Shown piece after piece: positions 278-15,899 of a stretch of DNA of 64,000 nucleotides (the stretch's first letter is position 1; each line of letters opens with the position of its first letter). Position numbers and translations under genes: made by a program. Below the pieces are notes generated by a model, which saw nothing but the letters and a program-made list of their open reading frames with translations, ran no database searches and was not told where the DNA came from. The DNA comes from Methanothrix sp. (lineage in GTDB: Archaea; Halobacteriota; Methanosarcinia; Methanotrichales; Methanotrichaceae): contig OY821645.1 in the NCBI GenBank assembly GCA_963682135.1, forward strand, positions 160,001-224,000, read 5' to 3'.

Positions 278-730
278 TCAAAGCATTTTGGCAATAGCTT
301 CCGAGATCGTCCAGACCTCAATTATCCTTGCCTCCTTGATCTTGTCAAAATGCCGGTCATTTGAGATCAGGATTCCACCTGCACACAAGCATGTAGCAGC
401 ATGGAGTATGTCCGCGTCTTGTCCCACCGGAAAAAGAGGCTTGCATTGAGTTATGACTTCATCGGAGATCTCTAAAACAACTACCTCATGCAAAAGCTGA
501 TCAAGAAGAAGTTGGCCGTAATCGCCAAGTTCGCGGGCATACTTCCTGTACTCACCGATGAGGGCTTCATTGGCGATGAGATCCTCCTCGCCATCGACAA
601 GCCTTAAGACCAGATCCGTGGTCCTTGTCCATCCTCTTTTTGCAGCAGCAATGAAGACGTTAGTGTCCAGCAAAAATCTTGTACTTCTCTCGCGCAATTC
701 TGTTGCCTTCTCCCTCGACATCCCTCTCAA
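278..730 (-). CDS. PIN-domain (VapC-type) toxin
   Basis: FLLDTNVFIAA, DADILHAA and LISNDRHF PIN motifs; overlaps the upstream antitoxin gene. Confidence 0.88.
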   Translation of the reverse strand: MRGMSREKATELRERSTRFLLDTNVFIAAAKRGWTRTTDLVLRLVDGEEDLIANEALIGEYRKYARELGDYGQLLLDQLLHEVVVLEISDEVITQCKPLFPVGQDADILHAATCLCAGGILISNDRHFDKIKEARIIEVWTISEAIAKML

Positions 731-975: not shown

Positions 976-1221
976 TTATCGGTATTGACAGGTCTTTGGA
1001 GAGTTCTGAGGGTGTCTCCGTTTGCTGAGCAGCATCAGCATCTCCCACTTGCTCTTGGTCCCTGCCAGCTCTGCTGCCTTGCCCAAGGAGAGCCTGCCTT
1101 CACGGTAAAGCTCCACAGCCAAAGAGCGCTTTATGAAAGGGCCTAGCTGGTCTTTATCGACTTTAATGAGGGCCAGGACCGAGCCCGGGAGGTCCACAAC
1201 AGCACTAACCGTTTTCATCAC
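976..1221 (-). CDS. UPF0175-family antitoxin-like HTH protein; C-terminus possibly truncated
   Basis: LAVELYREGRLSLGKAAELAG motif. Confidence 0.75.
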   Translation of the reverse strand: MMKTVSAVVDLPGSVLALIKVDKDQLGPFIKRSLAVELYREGRLSLGKAAELAGTKSKWEMLMLLSKRRHPQNSPKTCQYR

Positions 1222-2348: not shown

Positions 2349-5300
2349 TCATTCATTCATCCTCCAATCCACAAAAACGGATTTAACGAGATAATTTAAT
2401 TTAAATTCTGCTAATATCTTGAAATAATAAGGTTCTCCATAAATTATATCATCAAAATTAGTTCTTATTGACGAAAAAATATCATCAAACTGCTCTTGAT
2501 CTTTTACATGCAATTCAATTTTTACTTCCCATTTTCCCGTGCAGAATATGATATGGAATATTTGCAAATAGTTTGACATAAATTTCATAAAATTATCTTT
2601 TTCCTTTTTCGATAATTTTTTTAATCTTAAGAGGATTATGTACCATTCAAGTCCTAGAGCCCTAATATCGCATACGGGCATTAGTCCTATAATTATATCT
2701 TTTGATTTCAAGTCATACACTATATCGGCTAGTCTCTTGACATCTAATTCAAATTCTGACGAAAAATTTAATTGATAATATTGTTCAAATTCCGAAATTC
2801 TTAAAAGCATCTTGTACTCTTCATTATGGATATAGCTATATGCCTTTTCTTCAAGCGGTATTCTATATTCTCGATATGAGAAATCTGTTTCTTTTTTCCC
2901 AGATGTAAACAGATATCTTTGGCCAAAGAAATATTCGTCGATTAACCAAAGCATCTCATAATCTTTTAATTTATCTTGGCAAATTTCCTTTATTTGCATC
3001 ATTATTTCATTGTAATGATGCATGCTCTTAGCGAAAATAGCGATTAGATACGTCCATTGACTAACTCCACCAATGGATGCTATCCATGGTATTGCTTGAT
3101 GATTCATAAGCCCTTCGAGAATATGATTTTGAGTTTTTTTATCTATTATATCTATTGATAAAAATACATTAAAGCTAATTAGACCAAATCTACTGATATT
3201 GATAATTGGGACAAACTTATCCAAAAATCCGCGACTATGAAGGTCCTTTATCCTCTGTTTTATTACAAACTCATCAATATGTAATTTTTTCCCTATAATT
3301 TTAGGAGTTTGAGGCATTCCCTCCTTCCATGCTTCCCTCCATATTTCCTCTAAAATTATTGACTCCTGCTGGCTAAGATTTGCAGGAAGATTCTCAGATT
3401 TCCTGAATCTCACATTGCTGTTATAATTGACAAAATTAGCTTTTTTTCCCCATTTATCCAATATAATATCGATTTGATCTATAAGAATATTTCCAAGCGT
3501 AATCTCTTCGACATATTCGCCATTATCTTCAGGAATTATCACATCTCCATTCGGCTGAATAATGAAGTAGGACCTATCCCTTTCCTTTCGCCTTGAAACA
3601 ACTATCTGAAACGGTGATTGCCCTTTAAGATTACTGCGGAAATCCTGAATGGTATTTGTGAATGTGCTTTCCAGATATCCGCATCGTATCATGTTTAAAC
3701 GTGCCCCTGCTTCTGGGATAAGTTCGTATATCTTCCAAAGGTCAATTGAATATTTTGCTAATAGATTATAAATATTTAGTAGATTGTTGCGCACATTGAT
3801 GTTTTTGGATGTCAACAATGTACATACTCTTATTTGAAATGGTCTTGCATACTGTTGATAGTAATCTAGAATTGAAAGAACGTTCTTATAGTTATTTTCC
3901 CTTCCATTTTCTGAATGAATTTCATTTGTCGATCCGTCAAGAGATAGAGAAAGCCTATTTACATAATGTTCTATAGGCTCTTTATGATTCCAGAAATGTT
4001 CGCCATTGGTAGAAAGACATACTTTGATCCCTTTTTCATAAATATATTTTAGCATTTCGTCAATATATCTATATTTTAACGGTTCACCTCCAGAAATACA
4101 TATTGTTTTTATATATAATCTGTGTAGTATATCAACGACCTTTTTAGCACATTCCAAATCTAAATCAGGTATATTCTTTGGTTTAAAACAACAACGACAT
4201 GCGTAATCGCATTCGGAAGTTATCATCCAATCAACAATTGCTAGTTTATGATCGATATACTGGTCTGGAATATTGTTTTGGAGGCGTCCGCCAACGGAGC
4301 ATTTTTGAAGAATCATATCAGCAATCTGCCTAAGATTTTCTTTGCGGCCATCTAAAAATCCGATAGCCGATGATATGCCCGAAATCTCTGTATTATCAAG
4401 CAGTACGGGAATAACATAATCATACTTTTCTGAAATCGCTCTTGCTTGAGCACATTTTAACTCAAGTTGCGTCCATTTACTTTTTAAATAGTATTTCGAA
4501 ATAAATATAACGCAATAGCGTGCGCGTTCTTTAAAAATCTTTTCAAGTAGGTTGGGCAGATTTTCTCCAACTAGGTTACTCTTTTCATAAAAATCATAGA
4601 ATACATTAATTTTGCCTTGAAGAGCTTTTAAGACATTTTCTACATATGGTCTATCTTCTCTAGCAAAAGAGAAAGCAACATCATACTTAATAGTACTATT
4701 TATTTCGAAATCTGCGAGAAGATTCCAAATCCAAATAGAATTATCATTAGTGCCAAAGACAGCTCGATGACCGTCTGGTGTTATCGCTATACTCGTAAGA
4801 TACTTAGTTGAACCTATACTCTTTACACACTCTCTATTGATAAGATCCCAGATCCGCACTGTTTTATCAAGAGAACTAGTAAGTGCCCAGCGTCCATCTG
4901 AGGTCACAGCTAACCTGATAATCGCATCATTGTGTCCTTCCAGAACAGCTAATCCTTTGCTCGATCGAAAATCCCATAGGCGCACGGTATTATCGCGAGA
5001 ACCAGAGATAATTAATTGCTCATCTGGTGTTATGGCAACACAATCTACTGACCTAGAGTGACCTTCGAGCGTGACGATACATCGGGTAGTCTCCAAATCC
5101 CATACACGAAGGGTTCTGTCTGCAGAAGCAGAAACCACATAACGACCATTTGGCGCTACTGCAACACCGAAAACTGAATCAGTATGCCCCTCGAGAGTGG
5201 CAGCGCACTGAAAGGTCTTCGCATCCCATATCCGTAAAGTCTTATCAAAGGACCCAGAAATTATCCGTTGGCCATCTGGTGTCACAGCAATGCTGCAAAC

Positions 5301-6563
5301 TCCCTTTGTATGACCTTTAAGTATAGCGACACAATCTCCATTTGAAGCCAAGTCCCAGACCAGAATGGTTCCATCTGCGGAGCTCGAAACGGCAAATCGT
5401 CCATCTGGCGATATTGCAACCCCAAAGACTCGATCGGTATGACCGGAGAGTGTGTTAAGCGATGCCCATGATTGCAGATCCCATACTCGGAGCGTGTTGT
5501 CGTAAGAGCCGGAGATTGCCCGCCTACCATCTGGCGTTATTGCTACACCCCAAACTTGTCCACTATGCCCCCTAAGCACTTTATAAGGCTGTAACCCACT
5601 TTTCTGCTGAAAGGATTCGCTTATATCATTTTGTTCAAATAATTTTTGATCTAATGAATAAATATGGCCATCAAAAGTCCGTACGCGAGTTGGGCTTGGC
5701 CTAACTGGAATATCAATGGATTCCCCAGGAAGGATAACTAGCGATCTCATGGCATTACTGGAACCGTCATGTTGTAAGATATCGATTGTAATCGGTTGGA
5801 TGTTTGGAACACGAATTCCGAATTGACCTGAGCCGGACAGATAACCAATTCGAAAATCATTTCCAATCTTAAGCACATCAAGAACGACATGAGGTACGTT
5901 TGAGAAATCCAATTCTGCAAGATCCAATGATGTACTCGATTTTGAGAAACGCGAATCGTGCCTAATGATTCTTGCTGTAGAAATATTTCGCAATCGAGAA
6001 AATAGCGGATTTAGATTGGCAGCTTCTGGCAAGCGATTCCCCATCTCGACAATCCATTCATCGAGTGCAGGCCGATCATTCTTGGAAATGGCCTTGACCA
6101 CACGCCAGATATTTTGTTCAAAGACCCGCTTATGTTCAGGTTCCGCCATGTTTTCTTTTAGGCTCAGGTAAACCAATTCCTCTTCCCATCGAATTACCGG
6201 GGAGACTAACTGATGGCAATCTTCTACAACTTTGCGGGCCGCATCCAAAAGCCCTTGGTCGGCCCTAAGCCGTTCCCGCAATAGTTGGCTAAATTCAGGA
6301 AGCAGAGTTATATTATCCGGGCCGCGGCTTTCAATAAATGGGCTGAACCATAGAGTCGCTTCTGTAGCTACGGTAGGACGAAGTTCTGCTGAAAACCTAT
6401 CACTCAAAGCTAACCGCAGTGCACGAAGAAGTTCGGGCTCAATCCTTCTTGCTAGCGAAGCAAGCATCGCCAATGTGACAACATCGGGTCTTATGCATCC
6501 GTACTTACTCAGACTCACGCGTGCTCCATTTATTTCCTTTTCAGTCAGTGATCCAAACATCAT
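2349..6563 (-). CDS. Multidomain effector: MoxR/vWA-associated N-domain + 7xWD40 + TIR + viperin-like radical SAM + tandem Lrp/AsnC-like domains
   Basis: Seven WD40 repeats, six canonical GH...WD (~4720-5580). TIR YDVAFSFA...SKWTQLE (~4300-4690). CDYACRCC, SGGEP and STNG (~3430-4250). Two wHTH+RAM-like units (~2349-3370). Likely start is ATG 6563 after GAGGGAAGG; the ORF is open from 6632. Confidence 0.85.
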   Translation of the reverse strand: MMFGSLTEKEINGARVSLSKYGCIRPDVVTLAMLASLARRIEPELLRALRLALSDRFSAELRPTVATEATLWFSPFIESRGPDNITLLPEFSQLLRERLRADQGLLDAARKVVEDCHQLVSPVIRWEEELVYLSLKENMAEPEHKRVFEQNIWRVVKAISKNDRPALDEWIVEMGNRLPEAANLNPLFSRLRNISTARIIRHDSRFSKSSTSLDLAELDFSNVPHVVLDVLKIGNDFRIGYLSGSGQFGIRVPNIQPITIDILQHDGSSNAMRSLVILPGESIDIPVRPSPTRVRTFDGHIYSLDQKLFEQNDISESFQQKSGLQPYKVLRGHSGQVWGVAITPDGRRAISGSYDNTLRVWDLQSWASLNTLSGHTDRVFGVAISPDGRFAVSSSADGTILVWDLASNGDCVAILKGHTKGVCSIAVTPDGQRIISGSFDKTLRIWDAKTFQCAATLEGHTDSVFGVAVAPNGRYVVSASADRTLRVWDLETTRCIVTLEGHSRSVDCVAITPDEQLIISGSRDNTVRLWDFRSSKGLAVLEGHNDAIIRLAVTSDGRWALTSSLDKTVRIWDLINRECVKSIGSTKYLTSIAITPDGHRAVFGTNDNSIWIWNLLADFEINSTIKYDVAFSFAREDRPYVENVLKALQGKINVFYDFYEKSNLVGENLPNLLEKIFKERARYCVIFISKYYLKSKWTQLELKCAQARAISEKYDYVIPVLLDNTEISGISSAIGFLDGRKENLRQIADMILQKCSVGGRLQNNIPDQYIDHKLAIVDWMITSECDYACRCCFKPKNIPDLDLECAKKVVDILHRLYIKTICISGGEPLKYRYIDEMLKYIYEKGIKVCLSTNGEHFWNHKEPIEHYVNRLSLSLDGSTNEIHSENGRENNYKNVLSILDYYQQYARPFQIRVCTLLTSKNINVRNNLLNIYNLLAKYSIDLWKIYELIPEAGARLNMIRCGYLESTFTNTIQDFRSNLKGQSPFQIVVSRRKERDRSYFIIQPNGDVIIPEDNGEYVEEITLGNILIDQIDIILDKWGKKANFVNYNSNVRFRKSENLPANLSQQESIILEEIWREAWKEGMPQTPKIIGKKLHIDEFVIKQRIKDLHSRGFLDKFVPIINISRFGLISFNVFLSIDIIDKKTQNHILEGLMNHQAIPWIASIGGVSQWTYLIAIFAKSMHHYNEIMMQIKEICQDKLKDYEMLWLIDEYFFGQRYLFTSGKKETDFSYREYRIPLEEKAYSYIHNEEYKMLLRISEFEQYYQLNFSSEFELDVKRLADIVYDLKSKDIIIGLMPVCDIRALGLEWYIILLRLKKLSKKEKDNFMKFMSNYLQIFHIIFCTGKWEVKIELHVKDQEQFDDIFSSIRTNFDDIIYGEPYYFKILAEFKLNYLVKSVFVDWRMNE

Positions 6564-6579
6564 CCTTCCCTCAATGGAT

Positions 6580-7542
6580 TCATTGTCGGCGTCGTCGTAC
6601 GGTTGTGATCGAAGTATCACGATCCCATACATATGAATAGGGAATAAGCTGTTTCAATTCATTGGGCCAATACGATTCAGGTGCAGGGATCAAAGCAACT
6701 TGTGGACAGCAGTATCTTTCTGCTAAATTTAGCAAGGATCGCCATTGATCAAAACCAGTACAGCTGCCTGATATTTCGCCATCGATTCCAAAGTCAGAAA
6801 CTATCAACAACGGTGTTTTTTCGGGAAACTTATGAGGATGATCGGAGTACCATTTAATCTGAGGACCATCAGGTAACCAGCGATCGACTTCCATCCACCA
6901 GACACGAACCTTGGATCCTCCAAGAACCCGCTGAAGTCGCCTTAAGAGCTTTTTTTCGTCACGCCAAAATGGTTGCATAGACTCGGAGCGATCTAGAATC
7001 AATAATACTCCACGTTGCAGTGTCGGTCGTTGCCGCAAAGGCAGTCTCTTTAAGAGCAGTCCTCTAACCAGTTCTCTTTCCAGCACAGTCCATTCAATAT
7101 CCTTCGAGGCTCTTGAAGTTGCCAGCATCGCGCCCATAATTCCGCGAAACCGTATATCGTGCAACAATGGTTGGTATCTTGGCCGTACCATATGCGATTC
7201 TATATTTGTTGGTTCTAGCGGTTCGGTTGATGCTAAGATCGGGTCGTCAAGCAGGATCTCAAAACGCTGATTCTCACGCCCTACTGGAGCAAGAATTTTG
7301 CCATGAGAATCTGCCTGGAACTCAGAATCGAATGATTCTGTAGGTACCTTTAGCTCAGGGGTAACCTCATCACCACTATTCTTTGAAAATTCAAAGACTG
7401 AAATGGCCCTCCAGCTAAATCCCAATGATTCAGCCATAAAGGCTTTGGTATCGTTGCTCTTAGGTTTGAGTACCACCATAACCTTTAGAAGCTCTGCGAG
7501 TCCAATTTCAGAGCAATTGCGACCATGAAGCATACCAGGCAC
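6580..7542 (-). CDS. vWA-like protein of a MoxR-associated system
   Basis: LILDRSESM (DxSxS MIDAS) and LLIVSDFG; immediately downstream of MoxR. Confidence 0.75.
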   Translation of the reverse strand: MPGMLHGRNCSEIGLAELLKVMVVLKPKSNDTKAFMAESLGFSWRAISVFEFSKNSGDEVTPELKVPTESFDSEFQADSHGKILAPVGRENQRFEILLDDPILASTEPLEPTNIESHMVRPRYQPLLHDIRFRGIMGAMLATSRASKDIEWTVLERELVRGLLLKRLPLRQRPTLQRGVLLILDRSESMQPFWRDEKKLLRRLQRVLGGSKVRVWWMEVDRWLPDGPQIKWYSDHPHKFPEKTPLLIVSDFGIDGEISGSCTGFDQWRSLLNLAERYCCPQVALIPAPESYWPNELKQLIPYSYVWDRDTSITTVRRRRQ

Positions 7543-7594
7543 TAATTACACTCCCCTCATCACCAGTCTTCGCGAAGTCTACAATAAGCTATCA

Positions 7595-8623
7595 TTATTG
7601 CTTAATGACCGTATTTTGTACGACATGATCCCAAAGCTGTGATTCGACATCTATTCCAAGCTTAAAACATACTCTCAATGTATCCAAGAACTCCGCCGTG
7701 CTAGGCTGTCGGCCTGGGCGCCCTTTTTCGTTTTTCCGTAACTGGCAGTATTTTTCTGCTACTTTACGGATCAATTCCTCCCCATAATGGTGGGACTCTA
7801 TTAAGCTGCGCATGTGAAGATTAGCAATTTTTTCTAGGCGTTCGATTTGTTCCTTCTCATCATCCGGTTCTTTTATAGTGTGAACTACACACCTTCTAAT
7901 GAATGCATCTGGAAGATCGCGTTCTTGATTTGTTGTTATTACAATTAATAAGCTTCCAAAATGATTTGGTGATATCGGATTGGGATCACGTTCTGGGGCG
8001 TTTCTCTCGATGTTTAAATCCAATTCGTCGACTGTGAAACGATTTAAGCCAAAAACCTCTAATAGATCGTTGGGCAATTCGGGATCTGCTTTATCGATCT
8101 CATCAATGAGAACAACAGCACGCTCAGGATCGCGTTTAATATCAGACTCTGCAAAAGACTCGTCCTTCTTGCTCCCCTTAGAAGTAGTCGCTTTGGAGAG
8201 TATTCTTCTCTGAGAGATTTGCTCCATTGCAGTTTCACGATTGAACGCCCACCACAATACACCTGGAGTGACATAGCGCTTCGGATCAATATTAGATCTT
8301 GCCTGCGCATCTCGCAAGCGAGCCAACGCATCGAACTTCCAGAGCAAATCTTTAGCTTCCGTACGACCAGTAATCGTCGCTTCGTAATAGCTCCAGTTGA
8401 GGTTCCGAGCGGCGAACGGAGCAAATGATGACTTGCCCGATCCAGGTTGACCACGAATGAGCAGCGGGCGTTGAGTCACAATAGCGATCTCTGCAGCCAA
8501 TTTCAGATTCGGATCACACAAATAAACCATGCCGGTACGATCGTCCGGTCCAACCTCAATATCTGTAGCATTAGGATTATTCATCCACGGGAGGAATTGG
8601 TTATAATCGGCATAAGAGCTCAT
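7595..8623 (-). CDS. MoxR-family AAA+ ATPase
   Basis: Walker A GQPGSGKS, Walker B VLIDEIDKA, and ITTNQERDLPDAFIRRC. Confidence 0.93.
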   Translation of the reverse strand: MSSYADYNQFLPWMNNPNATDIEVGPDDRTGMVYLCDPNLKLAAEIAIVTQRPLLIRGQPGSGKSSFAPFAARNLNWSYYEATITGRTEAKDLLWKFDALARLRDAQARSNIDPKRYVTPGVLWWAFNRETAMEQISQRRILSKATTSKGSKKDESFAESDIKRDPERAVVLIDEIDKADPELPNDLLEVFGLNRFTVDELDLNIERNAPERDPNPISPNHFGSLLIVITTNQERDLPDAFIRRCVVHTIKEPDDEKEQIERLEKIANLHMRSLIESHHYGEELIRKVAEKYCQLRKNEKGRPGRQPSTAEFLDTLRVCFKLGIDVESQLWDHVVQNTVIKQ

Positions 8624-8634
8624 AGTTTGCCTCG

Positions 8635-9948
8635 CTAATCTCCTAAATATATTTGCGAAATTGCAGCATCTAAACGACTTTTCAATTCAGTCAACTCGTC
8701 GCGTTTTCTTTCATCCAAGGGAGGTAATGGTTTCCCTCCAATGGTATCAAAACGTTTCAAATCATCTGCAGAATTCCCCACTTGTACTAGAAAAATGATC
8801 ATTGGATATCGCTGACGCAGTTCCTTGAGAATCCGCTCTTTGGCGTACTCAAACGGAAGCGCACAGATTGCGACATCGCCTGGCATATGCAATCGTTCCG
8901 CAACAGCCTGAGGAAGATGCAACATATCACCGTCTTCATCATCCAGGGGCTTGAGAATCCTATCTCGAATTGTCCGCTCAATCTGGTGTTTAATTGCATC
9001 ATCGCCTTCGCCAGCACCACCGCTCACAGAAAATGCCCATATCGAACCATTATTATCGTAAATCTCGATCTTTGCCCTATTTAGGTATTCGTCGATTATC
9101 GCTTGCTCTTTTGCATTAACGGTTATGAGTCCAAGTTCTCCAGGCTTACGAGAAGCGCACAGAATGATTTCCATTGTATCGTTCGTGACCCATTTTGCAG
9201 TTAGATACTTTTTGAAGTAATCTGCCTTTTCACGTTTCAATTCACACAAGAGCTCGCGAAATGCTCCAACGCTTTCTATCGAAGGCTTGTGATGCATGAG
9301 TTCCGCAATAGTCTGGCATAGGCAGTACTGCTTGCGATCTCCAAGTTTGTTCCATAAATCTCCTCCGATAGGCGACTCTAACTCTAACTGTTCTGCAGCA
9401 TCCTGCAGAACAATTATGTCAACCGTTCTCATCAAACCAACTACCTGATGGACCCAAGGACTCATCGGTGGTTGTTTAGCTATATTGGGATCTAGATTTG
9501 ATAAAATATCCTCTGCAAACTCTTCAGGTGAACGCGATTTGTCATCCGTGATAACCTGAATTTCCTTCAGTTGAAATGGCTCATATTTTTTAAAACATGT
9601 GTCTTTAAGGCACCTACCATCTAGCAATACTGGAATAATCTGAAAACTTGGATCGATAAATTTGCGGAAGCAAAGGATTAAGGCTTCATCCATTACCCAT
9701 GTTGACTTTGACACTGCCCTCTCGTTAAAAAGAATGATTCCCGCATGCGCTTCAGCGAGATTATGCAGAATCTCCATCCGCCATTTGACTCCAGGGCGGA
9801 TGTTACTATCAATGAAAACGTACCACTTCTTTTCTTCTTCGTCTTCTTTGGACAAAACTGCACATAGGCATTCTTTAAGCTTGACAGAGCGATCCTCTGG
9901 GGGTAATCCGTTCGTCGAATGACTTATAAACAATATTGGTTTGCTCAT
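8635..9948 (-). CDS. TIR-domain protein with an uncharacterised C-terminal region (third component of the MoxR/vWA system)
   Basis: LFISHS, VFIDSNIRPGVKW, TWVMDEA (putative catalytic Glu) and IIPVLL. Likely start 9948; 11-bp gap to moxR. Confidence 0.8.
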   Translation of the reverse strand: MSKPILFISHSTNGLPPEDRSVKLKECLCAVLSKEDEEEKKWYVFIDSNIRPGVKWRMEILHNLAEAHAGIILFNERAVSKSTWVMDEALILCFRKFIDPSFQIIPVLLDGRCLKDTCFKKYEPFQLKEIQVITDDKSRSPEEFAEDILSNLDPNIAKQPPMSPWVHQVVGLMRTVDIIVLQDAAEQLELESPIGGDLWNKLGDRKQYCLCQTIAELMHHKPSIESVGAFRELLCELKREKADYFKKYLTAKWVTNDTMEIILCASRKPGELGLITVNAKEQAIIDEYLNRAKIEIYDNNGSIWAFSVSGGAGEGDDAIKHQIERTIRDRILKPLDDEDGDMLHLPQAVAERLHMPGDVAICALPFEYAKERILKELRQRYPMIIFLVQVGNSADDLKRFDTIGGKPLPPLDERKRDELTELKSRLDAAISQIYLGD

Positions 9949-9952
9949 GATT

Positions 9953-10102
9953 CTAGCGCCACCAGTCGATGGAACAACAATCTTCGCCATCAAAACCATT
10001 GAGATAAGGGCGATTGCCTCCGATTACACCCATGATCCTTACTTGCGACGCTTTCCAGTTATCAGGCTTGTGGTGAATGCTGTAGAATATCCTTCGCGCC
10101 AT
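9953..10102 (-). pseudogene. ThsB/DUF1863 (MTH538)-like TIR, N-terminal stub
   Basis: MARRIFYSIHHKPDNWKASQVRIMGVIGGN resembles the N-terminus of this family and ends after 49 codons. Confidence 0.62.
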
Positions 10103-10614: not shown

Positions 10615-11301
10615 CTACACCTTCCTTCCTCTCCTCACCCTCTTCCTCACAATCAGGCATATCGACTGCACGGTATTCCCGATAAAGAACCGCGGAGGCG
10701 TCCGTTTGCCCACCACCCGTGTACTCCCGGCCCGGATGGCCGCCACCGCTTCTTCCGCGTCTGCGGCTTCGATCTCCGTAACACCCAGGCCCACCGTAGC
10801 GGCAAAGTGCGAGTCGCTTCCCGCCACCATGGGCAGACCGCGCTTCTTTGCGCCCATTCTCGCCCGCGCGTTGGCTATGCCGAAAAGGTGTTTGGAGTTG
10901 TAGACCTCTACCGCATCGCAGTCCGGTATGCGCCCGATTGCATGTCGAAAGGGATGGTAAGGATGAGGAACGATGGTGATGCCTCCCTGCTCGCGGGCCA
11001 TATCCGCTGTCTCTTCCGGGCTTCTGCCCCGGGGCGGCAGCTCCTGCACACCTAAAACCAGCAGATGCCCCTCATCGGTGGTGACCTCCCCTCCAGGGAT
11101 GAGAATCAGGTCGAGCTTCTCTTCCCGGATGATCTTCAGGGCTTTGAGCGAGCCCTGCAATGTGTCGTGATCGGTTATGGATAGACCGGCTAATTTGCGC
11201 CCTGCTGCGGCGCGCAGGATGGTACGAACATCATCGCGGCCATCGGAACAGTTGGAATGCACATGCAGATCAAATCTCATCTTCGCCAGGGTCTCCATCA
11301 C
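10615..11301 (-). CDS. PHP-domain phosphoesterase
   Basis: DLHVHS, ITDHD, PHPY and GSDSH motifs. Confidence 0.9.
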   Translation of the reverse strand: MMETLAKMRFDLHVHSNCSDGRDDVRTILRAAAGRKLAGLSITDHDTLQGSLKALKIIREEKLDLILIPGGEVTTDEGHLLVLGVQELPPRGRSPEETADMAREQGGITIVPHPYHPFRHAIGRIPDCDAVEVYNSKHLFGIANARARMGAKKRGLPMVAGSDSHFAATVGLGVTEIEAADAEEAVAAIRAGSTRVVGKRTPPRFFIGNTVQSICLIVRKRVRRGRKV

Positions 11302-11449: not shown

Positions 11450-12703
11450 CTATCTGCTGATTTCCGGTACGGTCAGAATGCCGTTCAGCGCCGAGGCCGC
11501 CGCTGTGGCCGGGCTGGCCAGGTAAACCAGCCCTCCTTTACCCATCCTTCCCGGGAAGTTGCGATTGGATGTGGAGACACAAACCTCGCCTTCTGCCAGG
11601 ACGCCCATGTGCGCCCCCAGGCAGGGCCCGCATCCCGGCGGCCCGATCATCGCACCCGCTTCTACCAGCGGCTGGATGATGCCGCTTTGCATTGCCTCCA
11701 GCAAGACCTCTCGTGAGGCGGGGATGACCAGGGTTCTCGCTATAACCCGCTTTCCTCTGAGGATGCGGGCCGCCAGATCCAGATCCTCCAGCCTTCCGTT
11801 GGTGCAGGTGCCTATGAAGACCTGATCCACCTCCAGGCCCTCCAGCTCTGAGACTGGCTTCACATTATCAACCCGGTAGGGCACCGCCACCTGCGGCTCC
11901 AAATCGGTTATGTCGTACACGTATTCGTAATCGTATGAATCCGGATCAGATTGTACTGGCTTGTAAGGCTGCCGCGCCCGGCCTGCCAGCCAGGCGTGCG
12001 TCTTCTTATCAGGCGGAACTATGGCTGATTTGGCCCCCATCTCCACACCCAAATTGCACAGCGTCATCCTTCCGGATATGCTCAGAGCCTCAATGCTCGG
12101 GCCGATATACTCTACGGTCTTGTAGGTCGCCCCATCCGCGCCATGCTTGCCTATTATCATCAGCGCAATGTCCTTGGCAGATACGGACGATTTGGGCGTG
12201 CCTGATACTCGCACGGCTATAGTTTCTGGAACCTTGAACCACAAACGTCCCCGAGAATAGATCTCGGCCATGTCCGTCGCTCCCACGCCGGTGCCAAAGG
12301 CTCCCAGGGCCCCATAGGTGCAGGAATGCGAATCAGCCCCTACTAACAAGAGGCCGGGCAAGGCAAAACCCTGTTCGGGAAATACCTGATGGCACACTCC
12401 GCTGCCGCAGTCAAAAAAGTTGGAGATATTCTGCTCTTTGGCCCAGGCTCGCACATCCCGTTGCAGCTCCGCCGCTGTCTCATTGTTGGCAGGAACAATA
12501 TGGTCGAAAGGTATTACGATTCTTTTTGCATCCCATACCTTCCCAGACCCCATCTCCTGGAAGGCCCTGATTGCCAGAACACTTGTTCCATCATGAGACA
12601 TGGCATAATCCACACCAGCCTCAACAATCTCCCCCGGCTCCACCATTTTAGTGGAACCGGAGGCTCGTGAAAAAATTTTTTGGCTTATAGTTCCAGTCGC
12701 CAT
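11450..12703 (-). CDS. Isopropylmalate/homoaconitate hydratase family, large subunit
   Basis: [27 protein letters not shown] and [10 protein letters not shown]. Confidence 0.92.
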
Positions 12704-12750
12704 TACTCTCGCCCGCCTCTGGGCCTAAATGGCGATTCTATCACTTAAGC

Positions 12751-14622
12751 TCAACGCTTGCATAATATGTCCTCATGGGTGGGCATCATGTAAGCGATGT
12801 CGTCTGCCGGATGGCGGTAGAGCCTTGAACCCAAGCGCTTTTGATCCAGGATATGCCCAATCAAGCCGATGCTTCTTCCCAGGGCAAACAGCCCATTGAG
12901 ATAACCCAGGCGCACCACTTCATCGATCTCCGCCATGCTGAATGCTCCGCAGGAGGTCATCAGATCCAAGAAGAGAATGCCTATGCAGCCATCTACATTC
13001 AAGATCAAATTTCCTTTCTTGGCTGTGGTAAGCTCCTCCACCTGCAGGGCGTAATCGAGCAGCTGTGTGCTGGGGAAGTTCGCTTTGGCGTAGCTGATGA
13101 GCAACTGAACACGCTTGTCCGGGTTTTTAACGCTCTTAATCTTATGGCCGATGCCCGGGATGTTGATGCCCTTTCTCTTCATCTCCTTGACAAACTGCTC
13201 AGGCGTAAGATCCGTCTCTTTAGCATGCTTGAACTCACGAGCTGCATCATCGATAGCTCCGCCGAAGCGCGGGCCGATGGTCAAGAGTCCGCTGCACAGT
13301 GACGAGATGAGGTCTTTTCCGGCACATGAAGCCACAATGGCGTTATGGGCCCCGGATACGGCCGGCCCATGGTCAGCCACGATCTGCAAGACCAGATCAA
13401 TGAAACCAGTGGCATAGCGGGGCAGCTCCTTCTTGAACCAGAGCAGACCGATGACGCCGCCTATGCCCATCTTTTCTTCCAGGACGCTGGAGAGTCTCTT
13501 GCCGGCATAGAGCACCTCTTCTCCGCTATCGTCGGATATCGTGCAGATGAATGTGGTCGGCTTTCTGATATCGCCGGATGCCATTGCTTTGCTGTAGTCC
13601 GCCGGGATTTTGGGTACTTCCGGCTCAATGAGCGGCACTACTCTGCCCTGGGCGAGCAGCATCTCGTAAACCAGTCGAACCGTATCGCCATATCCATCAA
13701 ATGATGTGGGAACATAGGCACCTGCCGCTCTAAAGGCTTCATTCTTGGCCTGAGCCGTCTCCTTGTGAGTATCTGCCTTGGCTCCGGCATGGCCGAATTG
13801 AACGCTGGCGGGAAGAACCGGTGAGCAGGTTCCAGTCACCCAGGCTACCAGCGGCTTCTTGATCCTGCCATCTCTTAGTGCGGAAATGATCTTGTACTCA
13901 TCCTCACCGCCAAGTTCGCCAAGGCAGGCAATCATCTTGATGGCGGGGTTTTCCTCATAGCGCAGGATATGGTCGAGCATGGTTGAGCCTGGATAGCGAT
14001 CTCCTCCAATGGCCACGCCCTCGTAAATGCCGTCCGAGTTTCTGGAAATGATGTTGAATGCCTCGTTGAGCATGCCTCCCGACTTTGATACAAATCCCAC
14101 ACATCCCGGCCGGTAGAGCTTGGAGGCGATGATGTTCTCAATGGTTCCGGCGGTATTGCCTATGCGAAAAGCTCCCGCCGTCATTCCTCCAACCGTGGCT
14201 GGACCGATGACCATCTTGCCCTTCTTTTTGGCTGTGATGCTCATGATCCGCGACTGCCTCTCCGGTACACCTTCGGCAATTACCGCCACAACACGAATGC
14301 TCTTCTCAGCCAGTGCCTCCATGGTAGTATCAAAAGCGGAGCGATGCGAAGCGAAGTTGACCATCACATCCGCCTCAGGGTAGGCCTTGGCTGCCATGGG
14401 AATGCTCTTGTACATGGGCAGGATTATCTCTTTGGTTCCCCAGAAGGCCTTGTGAATACCGGCTCGGCTGGGATTGATGATGGCAGAGATGCTGGGGCCG
14501 TTACGATTGCAGATGTAATCGAAGTCCAGCATGCGCTGGATGGCATTTGTCTGATAGCCGTAGACGAAGGCTTTTGTGTTCTTATCAAATAGAACGTAGC
14601 TCTCTTTAGAAGTTTGGCTCAT
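12751..14622 (-). CDS. aclA: ATP-citrate lyase large subunit (CoA-binding + citryl-CoA lyase)
   Basis: QFGHAGA phospho-His motif, ADHGPAVSGAHN, PGIGHKIKS and LNVDG. Confidence 0.95.
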   Translation of the reverse strand: MSQTSKESYVLFDKNTKAFVYGYQTNAIQRMLDFDYICNRNGPSISAIINPSRAGIHKAFWGTKEIILPMYKSIPMAAKAYPEADVMVNFASHRSAFDTTMEALAEKSIRVVAVIAEGVPERQSRIMSITAKKKGKMVIGPATVGGMTAGAFRIGNTAGTIENIIASKLYRPGCVGFVSKSGGMLNEAFNIISRNSDGIYEGVAIGGDRYPGSTMLDHILRYEENPAIKMIACLGELGGEDEYKIISALRDGRIKKPLVAWVTGTCSPVLPASVQFGHAGAKADTHKETAQAKNEAFRAAGAYVPTSFDGYGDTVRLVYEMLLAQGRVVPLIEPEVPKIPADYSKAMASGDIRKPTTFICTISDDSGEEVLYAGKRLSSVLEEKMGIGGVIGLLWFKKELPRYATGFIDLVLQIVADHGPAVSGAHNAIVASCAGKDLISSLCSGLLTIGPRFGGAIDDAAREFKHAKETDLTPEQFVKEMKRKGINIPGIGHKIKSVKNPDKRVQLLISYAKANFPSTQLLDYALQVEELTTAKKGNLILNVDGCIGILFLDLMTSCGAFSMAEIDEVVRLGYLNGLFALGRSIGLIGHILDQKRLGSRLYRHPADDIAYMMPTHEDILCKR

Positions 14623-15899
14623 TCCGATGCACCACCCAGGGCCAGGGGAACAATTCTGGTCATATGCGTCTCAGGTCCGTAAACTTCAATGGGCACACCC
14701 AGCCTCTTACCTAAGCTGCGCATGAGCTTCAGTCCCTGCTCATAATTTGGGCCGCCTCTTCTAACGTAGATCTTGACGCCCGCATCCTGCAGCTTTTGCC
14801 GGTACTCCTCTAATGCCATGACCACTCCCTTGAAGGTCTTGGCCACATCAGTAAAGTTGGCAATAGCGCCGCCGATCAGCAGCATCTTTCCGCGAGGGTC
14901 ATTGCGACGTGTCATCAGGTCCAAAATGGTCCTGGTGTAATAGTAAGTCTCCTCTGTATTGGGATCGCCGCTGTATTCGCCGTAATTGGCCATCTCCTTA
15001 GCATGACCCAGATCGCAGATGGTATCGGCATAGATCACACTCGCTCCACCTCCGGCTACCATCGTCCAGACCCTGCCTTCCGGATTCAAAATAGTCAGCT
15101 TCAAAGAGGCACCTGTCTTGGAATCTAGATCCTTGATGAACAGCTCTTCCTTGGACAGGCTTTTGCCGAATTGCTCAGGAAAAGCAAGACCCAACCATCT
15201 TTTCCTCTGCCAGTACTCCTCGGCATCATCGAGCTTGGCCACCATATCCAAAGGTACAATGGTGCCGTCCTGGAAGGTGAAGGGATTGATCTCCAGGTAG
15301 GAAAAGCCCGTTTCTGCATAAAAGCGCCACAAAGCCTTGATGAAATTCTCAATGGCTGTGCTCTTTTCTTCAAGGCCCTCCGGCAACCTGGACTTTATAT
15401 CCACGCCCTCCATTCCGTCTAGTAGATCTACATGAAAACGAATTACTTTGTCCCAGTTCTCTTCGACAAATACGCCGCCTTGCATGGAGAAGAAGATGTT
15501 GTCGCCATCACCGTCCGAATTGATGGCCACATAAAGCTCTTCTTCATGGGGTATGAAGGGTTCAATTAAGAAATGAGATAGCCTTCCGGTTATACTCCCT
15601 ACGGTGACCGATGCACCCATATTCTCCTGAAGGTATTTCTTCGCCATATCCCAATCTGCATCCAGAAGAACCAGCCCGTGCTTGCCTCTCTTTCCAAAGA
15701 GCTGATCCGGCTTAACGACAAGCTTCTTCGTCTTCAGCCAGGGATGAGTTGATGCCAGCTCCTCCAGATCGGTCTCCGGTCCCACAAGGGCGAGATCGCC
15801 TTTATAGGAGAATTCACTGAGGTACTGGGGAAGGAATCCGGCCAGCAAGCGCTTTGCATCGTATTCCCTAATGCCTCTCTGTGCCATGTCCAAAACCAC
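14619..15899 (-). CDS. aclB: ATP-citrate lyase small subunit (ATP-grasp + citrate-binding)
   Basis: VVKPDQLFGKRGK, MVAGGGASV, NYGEYSG and ANFTDVA. Confidence 0.95.
   Translation of the reverse strand: MVLDMAQRGIREYDAKRLLAGFLPQYLSEFSYKGDLALVGPETDLEELASTHPWLKTKKLVVKPDQLFGKRGKHGLVLLDADWDMAKKYLQENMGASVTVGSITGRLSHFLIEPFIPHEEELYVAINSDGDGDNIFFSMQGGVFVEENWDKVIRFHVDLLDGMEGVDIKSRLPEGLEEKSTAIENFIKALWRFYAETGFSYLEINPFTFQDGTIVPLDMVAKLDDAEEYWQRKRWLGLAFPEQFGKSLSKEELFIKDLDSKTGASLKLTILNPEGRVWTMVAGGGASVIYADTICDLGHAKEMANYGEYSGDPNTEETYYYTRTILDLMTRRNDPRGKMLLIGGAIANFTDVAKTFKGVVMALEEYRQKLQDAGVKIYVRRGGPNYEQGLKLMRSLGKRLGVPIEVYGPETHMTRIVPLALGGASE

Follow-up and report, generated by a model that had tools for sequence, protein, structure and literature searches.

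What a MoxR-type ATPase, a small von Willebrand factor A (vWA)-like protein and two TIR-bearing proteins, one of them giant, are doing together in a methanogen is the question raised by four adjacent genes of Methanothrix sp. (assembly GCA_963682135.1). The stretch analyzed, hereafter the window, comprises 64,000 nucleotides (nts), positions 160,001 to 224,000 of contig OY821645.1, and the operon consists of four co-oriented open reading frames (ORFs) on the minus strand, without internal stops, over about 7.6 kb. An annotation made from the letters of the window alone (hereafter the original prediction) had taken the genes for a candidate new, horizontally acquired archaeal defense system, in which MoxR and vWA control a giant protein combining a WD40 sensor with several effectors. 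That the host is a methanogen, as it had supposed, is indicated by the McrA encoded in the genome.

Our analysis favors, with a probability of about 0.7, a reading of the locus as a MoxR-vWA conflict system of the immune or abortive-infection type that has four components, occurs once in the genome and was gained by horizontal transfer. The system would represent a split-gene variant of the ternary systems described by Kaur, Burroughs, Iyer and Aravind (2020, eLife; PMC7159879). We infer a defense function of the operon and control of its effector by the MoxR-vWA pair. New here would be the split arrangement of vWA and effector, which is accompanied by a dedicated N-terminal docking domain (NTD) on the effector protein, and a cassette of TIR, viperin-like radical SAM and double Lrp parts that forms the effector tail.

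Gene content and conserved motifs

Gene 1 (8635-9999) encodes an adaptor of 454 amino acids (aa), gene 2 (7595-8623) a MoxR-clade AAA+ ATPase of 342 aa, gene 3 (6580-7542, GTG start) a small vWA-like protein of 320 aa, and gene 4 (2349-6632), the longest ORF, a giant protein of 1427 aa, whose database form starts at residue 25 (base 6560) and has 1403 aa. The genes are separated by 11 bp, 52 bp and, at the third gap, 16 bp (ATG at 6563) or 19 bp (ATG at 6560), in agreement with the tight spacing and common orientation first noted. The genome holds one copy of the operon and one MoxR gene. The motifs that had been called intact, namely Walker A and B of MoxR, DxSxS of vWA and the W-x3-E glutamates of both TIR domains, could all be located, and the proposed domain list (MoxR, vWA, two TIR, WD40, radical SAM and Lrp-like) was borne out by Pfam, profile and alignment results.

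In the AlphaFold2 (AF2) model of the adaptor, with a predicted local distance difference test (pLDDT) value of 80.8, a TIR domain at approximately residues 22-170 is followed by a helical middle part (181-289) and an alpha/beta C-terminal module (291-454). The adaptor's own TIR_2 score of 27.7 bits lies just under the cut-off of 28, and the domain was assigned because TIR_2 is matched by all 11 orthologues (best 8.3e-14); E105 of its motif W101-x3-E105 is invariant across them. Foldseek matched the TIR domain of AbTir to the model at a TMt of 0.71, gave as top match the TIR-NB-ARC (TIR-NLR) protein RPP1 (2.8e-4, TM 0.24 over 490 columns), and included, lower down the list, a SIR2-STAND protein. 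When the C-terminal two-thirds of the adaptor were used as query against 1.84 billion cluster representatives, 39 proteins were found at E <= 0.001, nearly all of about 415-450 aa. TIR_2 was present in 27 of the 40 scanned members of this C-module family, which include the adaptor of the window (P0001), and most of the others were fragments. Judged from sequence, both this TIR domain and the one in gene 4 carry the TIR fold and the conserved catalytic glutamate; NADase-type catalysis is predicted.

The MoxR protein carries Walker A (G58-QPGSG-K64-S65) and Walker B (D174-E175), both conserved in 16 aligned orthologues, and matches AAA_5 in Pfam at 2.7e-11. The most specific Pfam model was bpMoxR, which scored 22.9 bits against a cut-off of 27 and covered only profile positions 17-96 of 205; the MoxR proteins of two relatives passed this cut-off with 39.7 and 32.5 bits, again with partial coverage. 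An N-terminal pattern, F-L-P-W ... P-D-D-R-S-G, is conserved in the 16 orthologues according to an alignment read by eye.

The four-gene core and its variable fourth gene

The vWA-like family of gene 3 accounts for 29 clusters among 5.8 billion. Scanning one genome per species (185,579 species) and a metagenome collection for this family gave 6 and 16 confirmed loci, respectively. Such pattern scans miss relatives in which either of two short peptide patterns is lost, and the family as a whole is therefore likely to be larger. The named loci are bacterial, represent several phyla and belong to Sedimentisphaerales, Pyrinomonadaceae, Prosthecobacter, Desulfuromusa, an alphaproteobacterium and Parafrankia. 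The gene immediately 5′ of the vWA-like gene is MoxR in 20 of the 22 loci, and the other two contigs begin in or beside the vWA gene. A TIR adaptor was found upstream in 15 of the 22 by tblastn and ORF mapping, and the NTD directly downstream of the vWA-like gene in the same number. The order adaptor, MoxR, vWA, NTD protein holds in all nine complete loci (L003, L005, L010, L011 and L015-L019), and the partial loci are consistent with it. In the most distant loci, L008 and L021, a weak trypsin-like domain (21-24 bits) takes the place of the adaptor TIR and the fourth gene carries EAD1. A distant version of the layout (L038) lies at 392829-401415 of NZ_CP107864 in Streptomyces europaeiscabiei, where the four products are annotated simply as a TIR protein (690 aa), a MoxR family ATPase, a hypothetical protein (345 aa) and a TPR protein (1489 aa); since NZ_CP107864 is a mobilizable linear plasmid of 417 kb, such systems travel on plasmids.

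The NTD (5598-6560, minus strand) comprises about 320 aa, is common to all fourth-gene products and is the only part kept across them, 22 proteins carrying it with unrelated C-termini. It has no Pfam or NCBIfam match above noise, and a Protein Atlas search with it returned unnamed clusters only, at 0.83-0.90. The region behind it differs in almost every locus: the fourth-gene types are TIR-NACHT-TPR, TIR-STAND-TPR, NB-ARC-TPR, WD40-Roc-DUF4365, TIR alone, STAND...TIR and SEFIR-TPR, with, further, SEFIR/TIR-cNMP-binding-NACHT-TPR, kinase-like-EAD1-TIR, WD40-TIR-WD40-Roc-cyclase-TIR and WD40-HEAT with an extra C-terminal region. This is the variability of effectors that had been anticipated, and the invariant C-terminus that was named in advance as a sign against it was not seen. 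The claim of a new archaeal conflict system, in contrast, held only in part, because the four-gene core recurs, mostly in bacteria, and follows a published order and logic; the novelty lies in the split between vWA and effector with its docking domain, and in the cassette.

Comparison with known MoxR-vWA systems

Kaur et al. (PMC7159879) describe VMAP, iSTAND and beta-propeller subtypes of MoxR-vWA ternary systems. In the VMAP and iSTAND systems, the order third component, MoxR, vWA is strict, the third component begins with TIR, trypsin, caspase or EAD, and the C-terminal tail of the vWA protein is a hypervariable effector array (PMC7159879). At the present locus we found a MoxR with Walker A and B, a vWA-like protein with the aspartates of the metal ion-dependent adhesion site (MIDAS), and a third component with N-terminal TIR located 5′ of MoxR and then vWA. 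The variable effector array is also found, in split form, being placed on the next gene behind the NTD, and in L007 it is fused.

The iSTAND systems share most with the locus in these parts of the source, namely a third component with N-terminal TIR (trypsin-like or EAD in relatives) before MoxR and vWA, a MoxR without the VMAP-type terminal motifs and a variable effector array after the vWA domain (PMC7159879); the top Foldseek match of the adaptor, a TIR-NB-ARC protein, points in the same direction. Different from iSTAND as described there, a STAND domain could not be demonstrated in the adaptor, whose helical part precedes the alpha/beta part. Furthermore, a second protein, equipped with a conserved docking domain, carries the effectors, no transmembrane segments or cell-wall domains were seen, and the host is an archaeon. 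The hhalign comparison of the adaptor C-module with 15 STAND domains of related fourth genes, which did not include an iSTAND profile, gave a probability of 0.4%. A single local hhalign alignment placed the conserved S-V-S-x-x-x-G-E-G-D loop of the C-module over the Walker A loop, which is a hint only. Membership in the iSTAND subtype is possible.

With VMAP systems, the locus shares the strict order adaptor, MoxR, vWA, a tripartite adaptor (N-terminal effector, helical middle and conserved alpha/beta C-terminal domain), and a vWA protein in which a disordered linker connects an N-terminal extension to the vWA domain, with an extraordinarily variable sequel (PMC7159879). Swaps to a trypsin-like domain or EAD, as in our distant relatives, are likewise described there for both VMAP and iSTAND adaptors (PMC7159879). 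The differences are the missing match to VMAP-C, another N-terminal pattern of MoxR, and the split of vWA and effectors. VMAP-C (PF20028) had no match in the adaptor or its 11 orthologues at E up to 1, and the motifs WxhapG and PsWRxa of the MoxR of VMAP systems are absent from the N-terminus in the alignment of the 16 MoxR orthologues. No VMAP-C was found in the genome of the window either, and since control genomes were equally empty this is a weak negative.

The beta-propeller subtype, to which the original prediction had also referred, resembles the locus in that bpMoxR is the nearest specific MoxR model and a large beta-propeller protein is present. However, that subtype, as portrayed in the same parts of the source, has a C-terminal propeller of about four blades on the vWA protein, no conventional effectors and a P-loop that is often GxxxTAKS (PMC7159879), whereas here a 320-aa vWA protein lacks a propeller, the WD40 repeats are on gene 4, the P-loop reads GQPGSGKS, and the bpMoxR score is below the cut-off. 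On the grounds of propeller position and P-loop, as far as the subtype is described there, it was excluded, and the propeller type that had been named does not apply. PADLOC, one of the checks proposed at the outset, returned no system-level match to the operon.

Outside the ternary systems, NorQ-NorD and CoxD-CoxE similarly consist of a MoxR AAA+ protein and a vWA co-chaperone that binds the client through its MIDAS face, and NorD is the best structural match of gene 3; the clients here, unlike those pairs, are hypervariable immune-type proteins instead of a metalloenzyme, and a TIR adaptor is added.

The vWA-like protein and its predicted contact with the docking domain

Gene 3 encodes N-terminal helices, a disordered linker and a Rossmann-like domain. 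Its MIDAS motif consists of D184-x-S186-x-S188 and D250, of which D184, S188 and D250 are invariant and S186 nearly so among 28 members; the invariant stretch of the family reads D-x-S-x-S-M-Q-P-F-W and is accompanied by a second conserved aspartate. No match was obtained in Pfam, including Pfam VWA, in NCBIfam or in PADLOC. AF2 folds the C-terminal domain at pLDDT 80-90 as a Rossmann-like sandwich without a propeller, for which Foldseek gave as top match the vWA domain of NorD in complex with NorQ (2e-4), and also the vWA domains of CLCA1, midasin and TFIIH. On motif, context and fold together gene 3 is accepted as a minimal vWA, the fold evidence alone being modest. Matches of the family profile to spectrin (0.01) and, in the linker region, to TIPIN among PDB sequences were taken as chance.

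Two lines of evidence connect this protein with the NTD. In the distant locus L007 the vWA ORF is 1223 aa long, and residues 344-583, directly after the vWA domain, align with the NTD profile at an hhalign probability of 87% (E 3.8e-6), the best-conserved NTD motifs included. The sequence supports L007 as a fusion of vWA and an NTD-like region that links the split to the fused form. In addition, co-folding of the vWA family and NTD alignments reached a score of 0.82, compared with 0.00 for the best of three controls. Of 80 solved complexes, 58 attain the mark applied, as do 2 of 110 mismatched pairs; these counts are only a rough guide here because custom alignments were used. Between runs at least 57% of the contacts agreed, with a partner pLDDT of at least 80. 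In the predicted interface, vWA residues 188-194, immediately behind DxSxS, together with D250, 286-288 and 305-308 meet NTD residues 41-47 and 63-72, and both sides include invariant residues of their families. Invariant acidic residues of the NTD occur in its E-P-E-L-L-R and E67 stretches. The model supports docking of the NTD on the MIDAS face of vWA. To our knowledge no similar vWA-NTD complex has been solved, and a pass through model memory seems unlikely. In characterized MoxR-vWA pairs, according to the parts of Kaur et al. drawn on here, the MIDAS face captures a segment of the client, which ATP hydrolysis by MoxR remodels (PMC7159879).

Replacement of the effector tail in gene 4

Behind the NTD, gene 4 continues with a WD40 beta-propeller (4713-5597, minus strand; WD40 3.1e-75, seven stretches), and residues 25-763 are 66% identical to P0006, a protein with NTD, WD40 and TIR and then other domains. 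Residues 645-1420, in turn, are 41% identical, end to end, to P0057, a stand-alone protein of 793 aa with TIR, radical SAM and Lrp. The fraction of guanine and cytosine (GC) drops from 0.47 to 0.35 at the start of the second TIR domain (4263-4712, minus strand; TIR_2 6.9e-15, 56 bits; W720-x3-E724), where the low-GC cassette begins. Because the homology switches from P0006 to P0057 and the GC drops at the TIR start, the sequence indicates that a TIR/radical SAM/Lrp gene from a low-GC source took the place of the tail in an NTD-WD40-TIR protein, with the exchange located at or in the TIR domain. The cassette is completed by a viperin-like radical SAM domain (3468-4262, minus strand; C808-x3-C812-x2-C815, GGEP at 848) and by two tandem Lrp/AsnC modules of about 370 aa (2352-3467, minus strand), each a winged helix-turn-helix (HTH) followed by RAM.

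An assembly chimera at the WD40/TIR junction was considered and rejected. Contigs of 9295 nts in the runs of two studies span 2349-6700 with no difference, although these runs are possibly the source of the genome itself, and a 397-nt contig from a landfill metagenome bridges the junction at 4484-4880 with three differences. With these spanning contigs and the landfill bridge the fusion is considered real. In run X5, compared over 2349-6700, short contigs match perfectly and then pass into unlike, GC-rich sequence at 3105, 4026, 4724, 5436, 5742 and 6356. The break at 4724 is 12 nts from the cassette junction, and it could reflect another arrangement, a mixed sample or assembly noise.

A real fusion may still be a dead one, the cassette swap having left an unregulated or inactive chimeric giant gene in a decaying operon. 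The abrupt change of GC and homology within one ORF, the repeat-element remnant next to the stop codon and the X5 contig match that ends at 4724 near the junction, with unlike sequence beyond, all fit such a non-functional mosaic. We regard it as improbable, in view of four ORFs that show no disruption along 7.6 kb and retain all catalytic motifs, a 4.2-kb ORF that, given the 31-35% GC of its 3′ half, would quickly gather stops if neutral, and a sequence that is identical in the runs of two studies and nearly so in the landfill metagenome. Under the preferred reading of a working conflict system, the replacement is a case of effector swapping caught in the act, in which a low-GC TIR/radical SAM/Lrp cassette, existing also as a stand-alone gene, took over the tail of the giant protein.

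The radical SAM domain matches Radical_SAM of Pfam at 4.8e-16, and its motifs CxxxCxxC and GGE are conserved through the cassette family. Among NCBIfam models, viperin_w_prok (NF038283) scored 87.5 bits and the next family about 60 bits, approximately 27 lower; the pVip model of PADLOC matched at 6.5e-26, and in the PDB, RSAD2 and viperin-like enzymes were the top matches, ahead of MoaA. The domain thus shares with prokaryotic viperins (pVips) and viperin RSAD2 the two motifs and the best matches in all three resources. It differs from them in the score, in that the alignment to mouse viperin spans the radical SAM core only, and in having V-D-W-M opposite V-N-Y-H of mouse viperin, residues that we take to contact the substrate. 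Moreover, pVips are stand-alone proteins of about 300 aa, whereas the domain here is inside a 1427-aa protein or a cassette of 620-890 aa. The domain is accordingly termed viperin-like here, in preference to viperin. Among the viperin fusions listed in bioRxiv 10.1101/2023.09.13.557418, in the part of that work used here, there are no TIR, caspase or Lrp fusions.

For the Lrp/AsnC modules, AsnC_trans_reg scored only 18.5 bits on the window's own C-terminal stretch, under the cut-off of 25. Relatives of the cassette with 38-41% identity pass the Pfam cut-offs for HTH_24, HTH_AsnC-type and AsnC_trans_reg, and it is because of them that the assignment was made despite the weakness of the own sequence. 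With the cassette family profile, module 1 matched Lrp/AsnC structures at about 1e-11 and module 2 at 2e-3, the latter also matching a NirD-like structure at 9e-5. In common with Lrp/AsnC regulators (FFRP) and the Lrp-like siroheme decarboxylases AhbA/B and NirDL, there are two full winged-HTH and RAM modules, and the tandem on one chain resembles fused NirDL-type pseudo-dimers. Unlike in these proteins, the tandem is fused behind radical SAM and TIR or caspase, and DNA binding, ligand binding and decarboxylase activity are unsupported.

These resemblances bring up the alternative that the operon is a housekeeping chaperone pair of the NorQ/NorD or CoxD/CoxE type, which would mature a radical SAM/Lrp-like enzyme whose Lrp-like pair binds substrate as in AhbA/B and NirDL. 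The match of the vWA model to NorD in its complex with NorQ and that of the second Lrp module to NirD-like are in its favor, as are the AhbD, NirJ and AhbC models, which match the radical SAM domain at about 1e-16 to 1e-12, after viperin. Tblastn with the window proteins detected radical SAM or Lrp homologues in none of the 22 related loci, so that the core cannot exist to serve that part. The fourth genes are, furthermore, hypervariable with TIR, STAND and TPR, two TIR domains are present here, the island is absent from 400 sampled relatives, and the viperin models lie about 27 bits above those of Ahb and NirJ. This alternative is therefore the least credible of those considered, with very little probability left to it, and we return to the conflict system.

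The cassette family comprises 35 proteins found so far in three forms, one in which radical SAM and two Lrp/AsnC modules make up about 620 aa, one with an N-terminal TIR (P0057 and P0064), and one of about 890 aa with an N-terminal caspase. The full cassette was not found in 400 genomes of the phylum, where the matches were to radical SAM only and none reached the Lrp part; scanning viral contigs with the cassette alignment gave 106 pattern matches, none of which was confirmed. The best matches to the radical SAM domain in the phylum were stand-alone ORFs of about 280-300 aa with 25-28% identity (E 3e-22 to 8e-16) in the related, same-class methanogens L027, L028, L030, L032 and L035 (G388, G170, G079, G055 and G248), which may be ordinary prokaryotic viperins.

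The effector combination had not been recognized from described systems, and our literature search likewise found no description of the radical SAM/Lrp/TIR cassette or of the split vWA/NTD arrangement; the supplementary neighborhoods of PMC7159879 were outside its scope and may hold relatives. As a tentative idea, to which we give rather low odds, the cassette of TIR or caspase, viperin-like radical SAM and double Lrp could be a self-contained, undescribed immune module. The radical SAM domain would make a small nucleotide-derived molecule, the RAM pair on the same chain would sense this product or a ligand of the invader, and Lrp-type oligomerization would switch on the TIR or caspase domain. 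In the present locus a split MoxR-vWA system would have taken up the module as its warhead, with the vWA MIDAS face restraining it via the docking domain. If true, this would offer, for the first time, a concrete structural approach to the holding and release of effectors by MoxR-vWA conflict systems.

Horizontal acquisition of the island

From gene 1 through the first half of gene 4, GC is 0.43-0.47, and it falls to 0.31-0.35 in the last 2.4 kb. These values, 0.31-0.47 over the operon, compare with 0.54 in the right flank and 0.50 in the whole genome. Among 400 further genomes sampled from the phylum, none was found to carry the NTD. Low GC, this absence and the single copy agree with the horizontal acquisition proposed at first.

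A metagenome contig of 35 kb (L011) carries the four-gene system, at 49-63% identity and with a WD40-Roc-DUF4365 fourth gene, at another locus. It is considered to come from a related methanogen, because its flanks show 70-82% aa identity to the regions of the present genome at 2.09 and 1.90 Mb. GC is 0.47 in the L011 operon versus 0.585 in its flanks. Since the system is located elsewhere in L011 and is again of low GC, we conclude that it moves among methanogens as an island. The longest reading of the L011 adaptor has an in-frame TAG at codon 9, and its true start is probably a downstream ATG.

Directly downstream of the operon lies a multi-copy repeat-element remnant (1949-2300, strand not given). 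By blastn against the genome itself, pieces of it match approximately ten or more other places at 76-98% identity. As the pieces sit about 500 nts further apart in other copies, the present copy looks internally deleted and resembles a remnant of an insertion sequence (IS) or miniature inverted-repeat transposable element. Of the IS remnants claimed earlier, the repeat remnant was recovered, and no transposase domain was found in that stretch. A toxin-antitoxin module had also been reported nearby, and the PIN-domain ORF (278-730, minus strand) and UPF0175 ORF (976-1221, minus strand) are likely such a pair.

Weighing of the evidence and a possible mechanism

Several results count against a conflict system of this type. 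No PADLOC system matches the operon. The fold support for vWA is modest (E about 1e-4), with many phosphoribosyltransferases at similar scores, and the vWA-like family profile matched no vWA structure among PDB sequences. The C-module of the adaptor is without family assignment, given no VMAP-C match and the STAND probability of 0.4%. The co-folding pass expresses the model's own confidence and is not a measurement. The 87.5 bits of the radical SAM domain are far under the curated viperin cut-off of 180, and with V-D-W-M a 3′-deoxy-3′,4′-didehydro (ddh)-nucleotide product is uncertain. No integrase or other mobility gene lies near the island; a search of the genome for tyrosine integrases gave four places, all away from it. 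Lastly, defense, toxicity and enzymatic activity are predictions here and, in the parts of the source drawn on, for the published ternary systems as well, which are known from computation only (PMC7159879).

The trigger is a separate matter, as the same hardware could respond to cell-cell or stress signals in aggregates and serve a social or developmental program of cell death or kin conflict. The ternary systems are, in the account of Kaur et al. as drawn on here, statistically tied to multicellular or aggregating prokaryotes, with few archaeal cases in such organisms (PMC7159879), and sequence does not separate a viral from a cellular trigger. TIR, viperin-like radical SAM, caspase, STAND and EAD are, however, typical parts of immune effectors, and a patchy, transfer-driven distribution fits defense islands. 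We therefore consider a kin-conflict role unlikely and keep to an immune or abortive-infection function.

TIR effectors need assembly for NADase or signal-nucleotide activity, and TIR and caspase domains are activated by proximity. We propose a working model of the conflict system. The MIDAS face of the small vWA protein would grip the NTD of the giant protein, as suggested by the co-folding and the one fused form, so that the effector array is inactive or poised. By analogy with other MoxR-vWA pairs, the MoxR hexamer, together with the TIR adaptor, might remodel or release the vWA-NTD complex at the cost of ATP and so set the threshold. The WD40 propeller, which has TPR or STAND modules as counterparts in relatives, may offer the binding or sensing surface for a signal derived from the invader. 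Activation would join the TIR domains of the adaptor and the giant protein, leading to NAD+ consumption or a nucleotide signal, and the viperin-like radical SAM domain may contribute a second chemistry by making a modified nucleotide or other small molecule. The tandem Lrp/AsnC pair, as an intramolecular dimer, could act as a ligand-gated oligomerization or DNA-binding module, which would account for the fusion of the cassette to TIR or caspase domains.

We know of no demonstration of how a MoxR-vWA chaperone pair controls effectors. Among prokaryotic conflict systems the MoxR-vWA ternary systems form a large class, and with a split vWA and a compact, conserved docking domain, two small proteins suffice to test how effectors are held and, by means of ATP, released. 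The 35 proteins that join viperin-like radical SAM and Lrp, in part with TIR or caspase, are candidates for new immune chemistry, and the locus adds a transfer-acquired case of a MoxR-vWA system in methanogenic archaea.

Flanking genes and repeats

To the left of the operon, the PIN and UPF0175 pair is accompanied by fragments of riboflavin-kinase genes. Two truncated ORFs of CTP-dependent riboflavin kinase, at 2-223 and 1392-1616, share a 210-nt direct repeat (30-239 and 1423-1632, 83%), and a third similar copy is found at genome positions of approximately 483036-483380. A further low-GC stretch (0.375-0.436) occupies genome positions 157001-159000, which is 1-3 kb left of the window, and the variable region may extend further in that direction.

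An imperfect direct repeat of 54 nts (83%) occurs at window positions 10647-10700 and at genome positions 159867-159920, just left of the window. The two copies bracket about 10.8 kb in which the operon, the riboflavin-kinase fragments and the toxin-antitoxin pair are all located. A PHP-domain gene has its 3′ end in the right copy, and the repeat may mark an old insertion into the end of this gene.

The neighbors on the right are housekeeping genes, namely those for the PHP-domain protein, an aconitase-family protein and ATP-citrate-lyase-like proteins. At 11450-15899, the aconitase-family gene stands beside two genes of the ATP-citrate-lyase type (Citrate_bind, ATP-grasp, CoA-ligase and citrate synthase C-terminal domains), a cluster that represents notable central metabolism for a methanogen.

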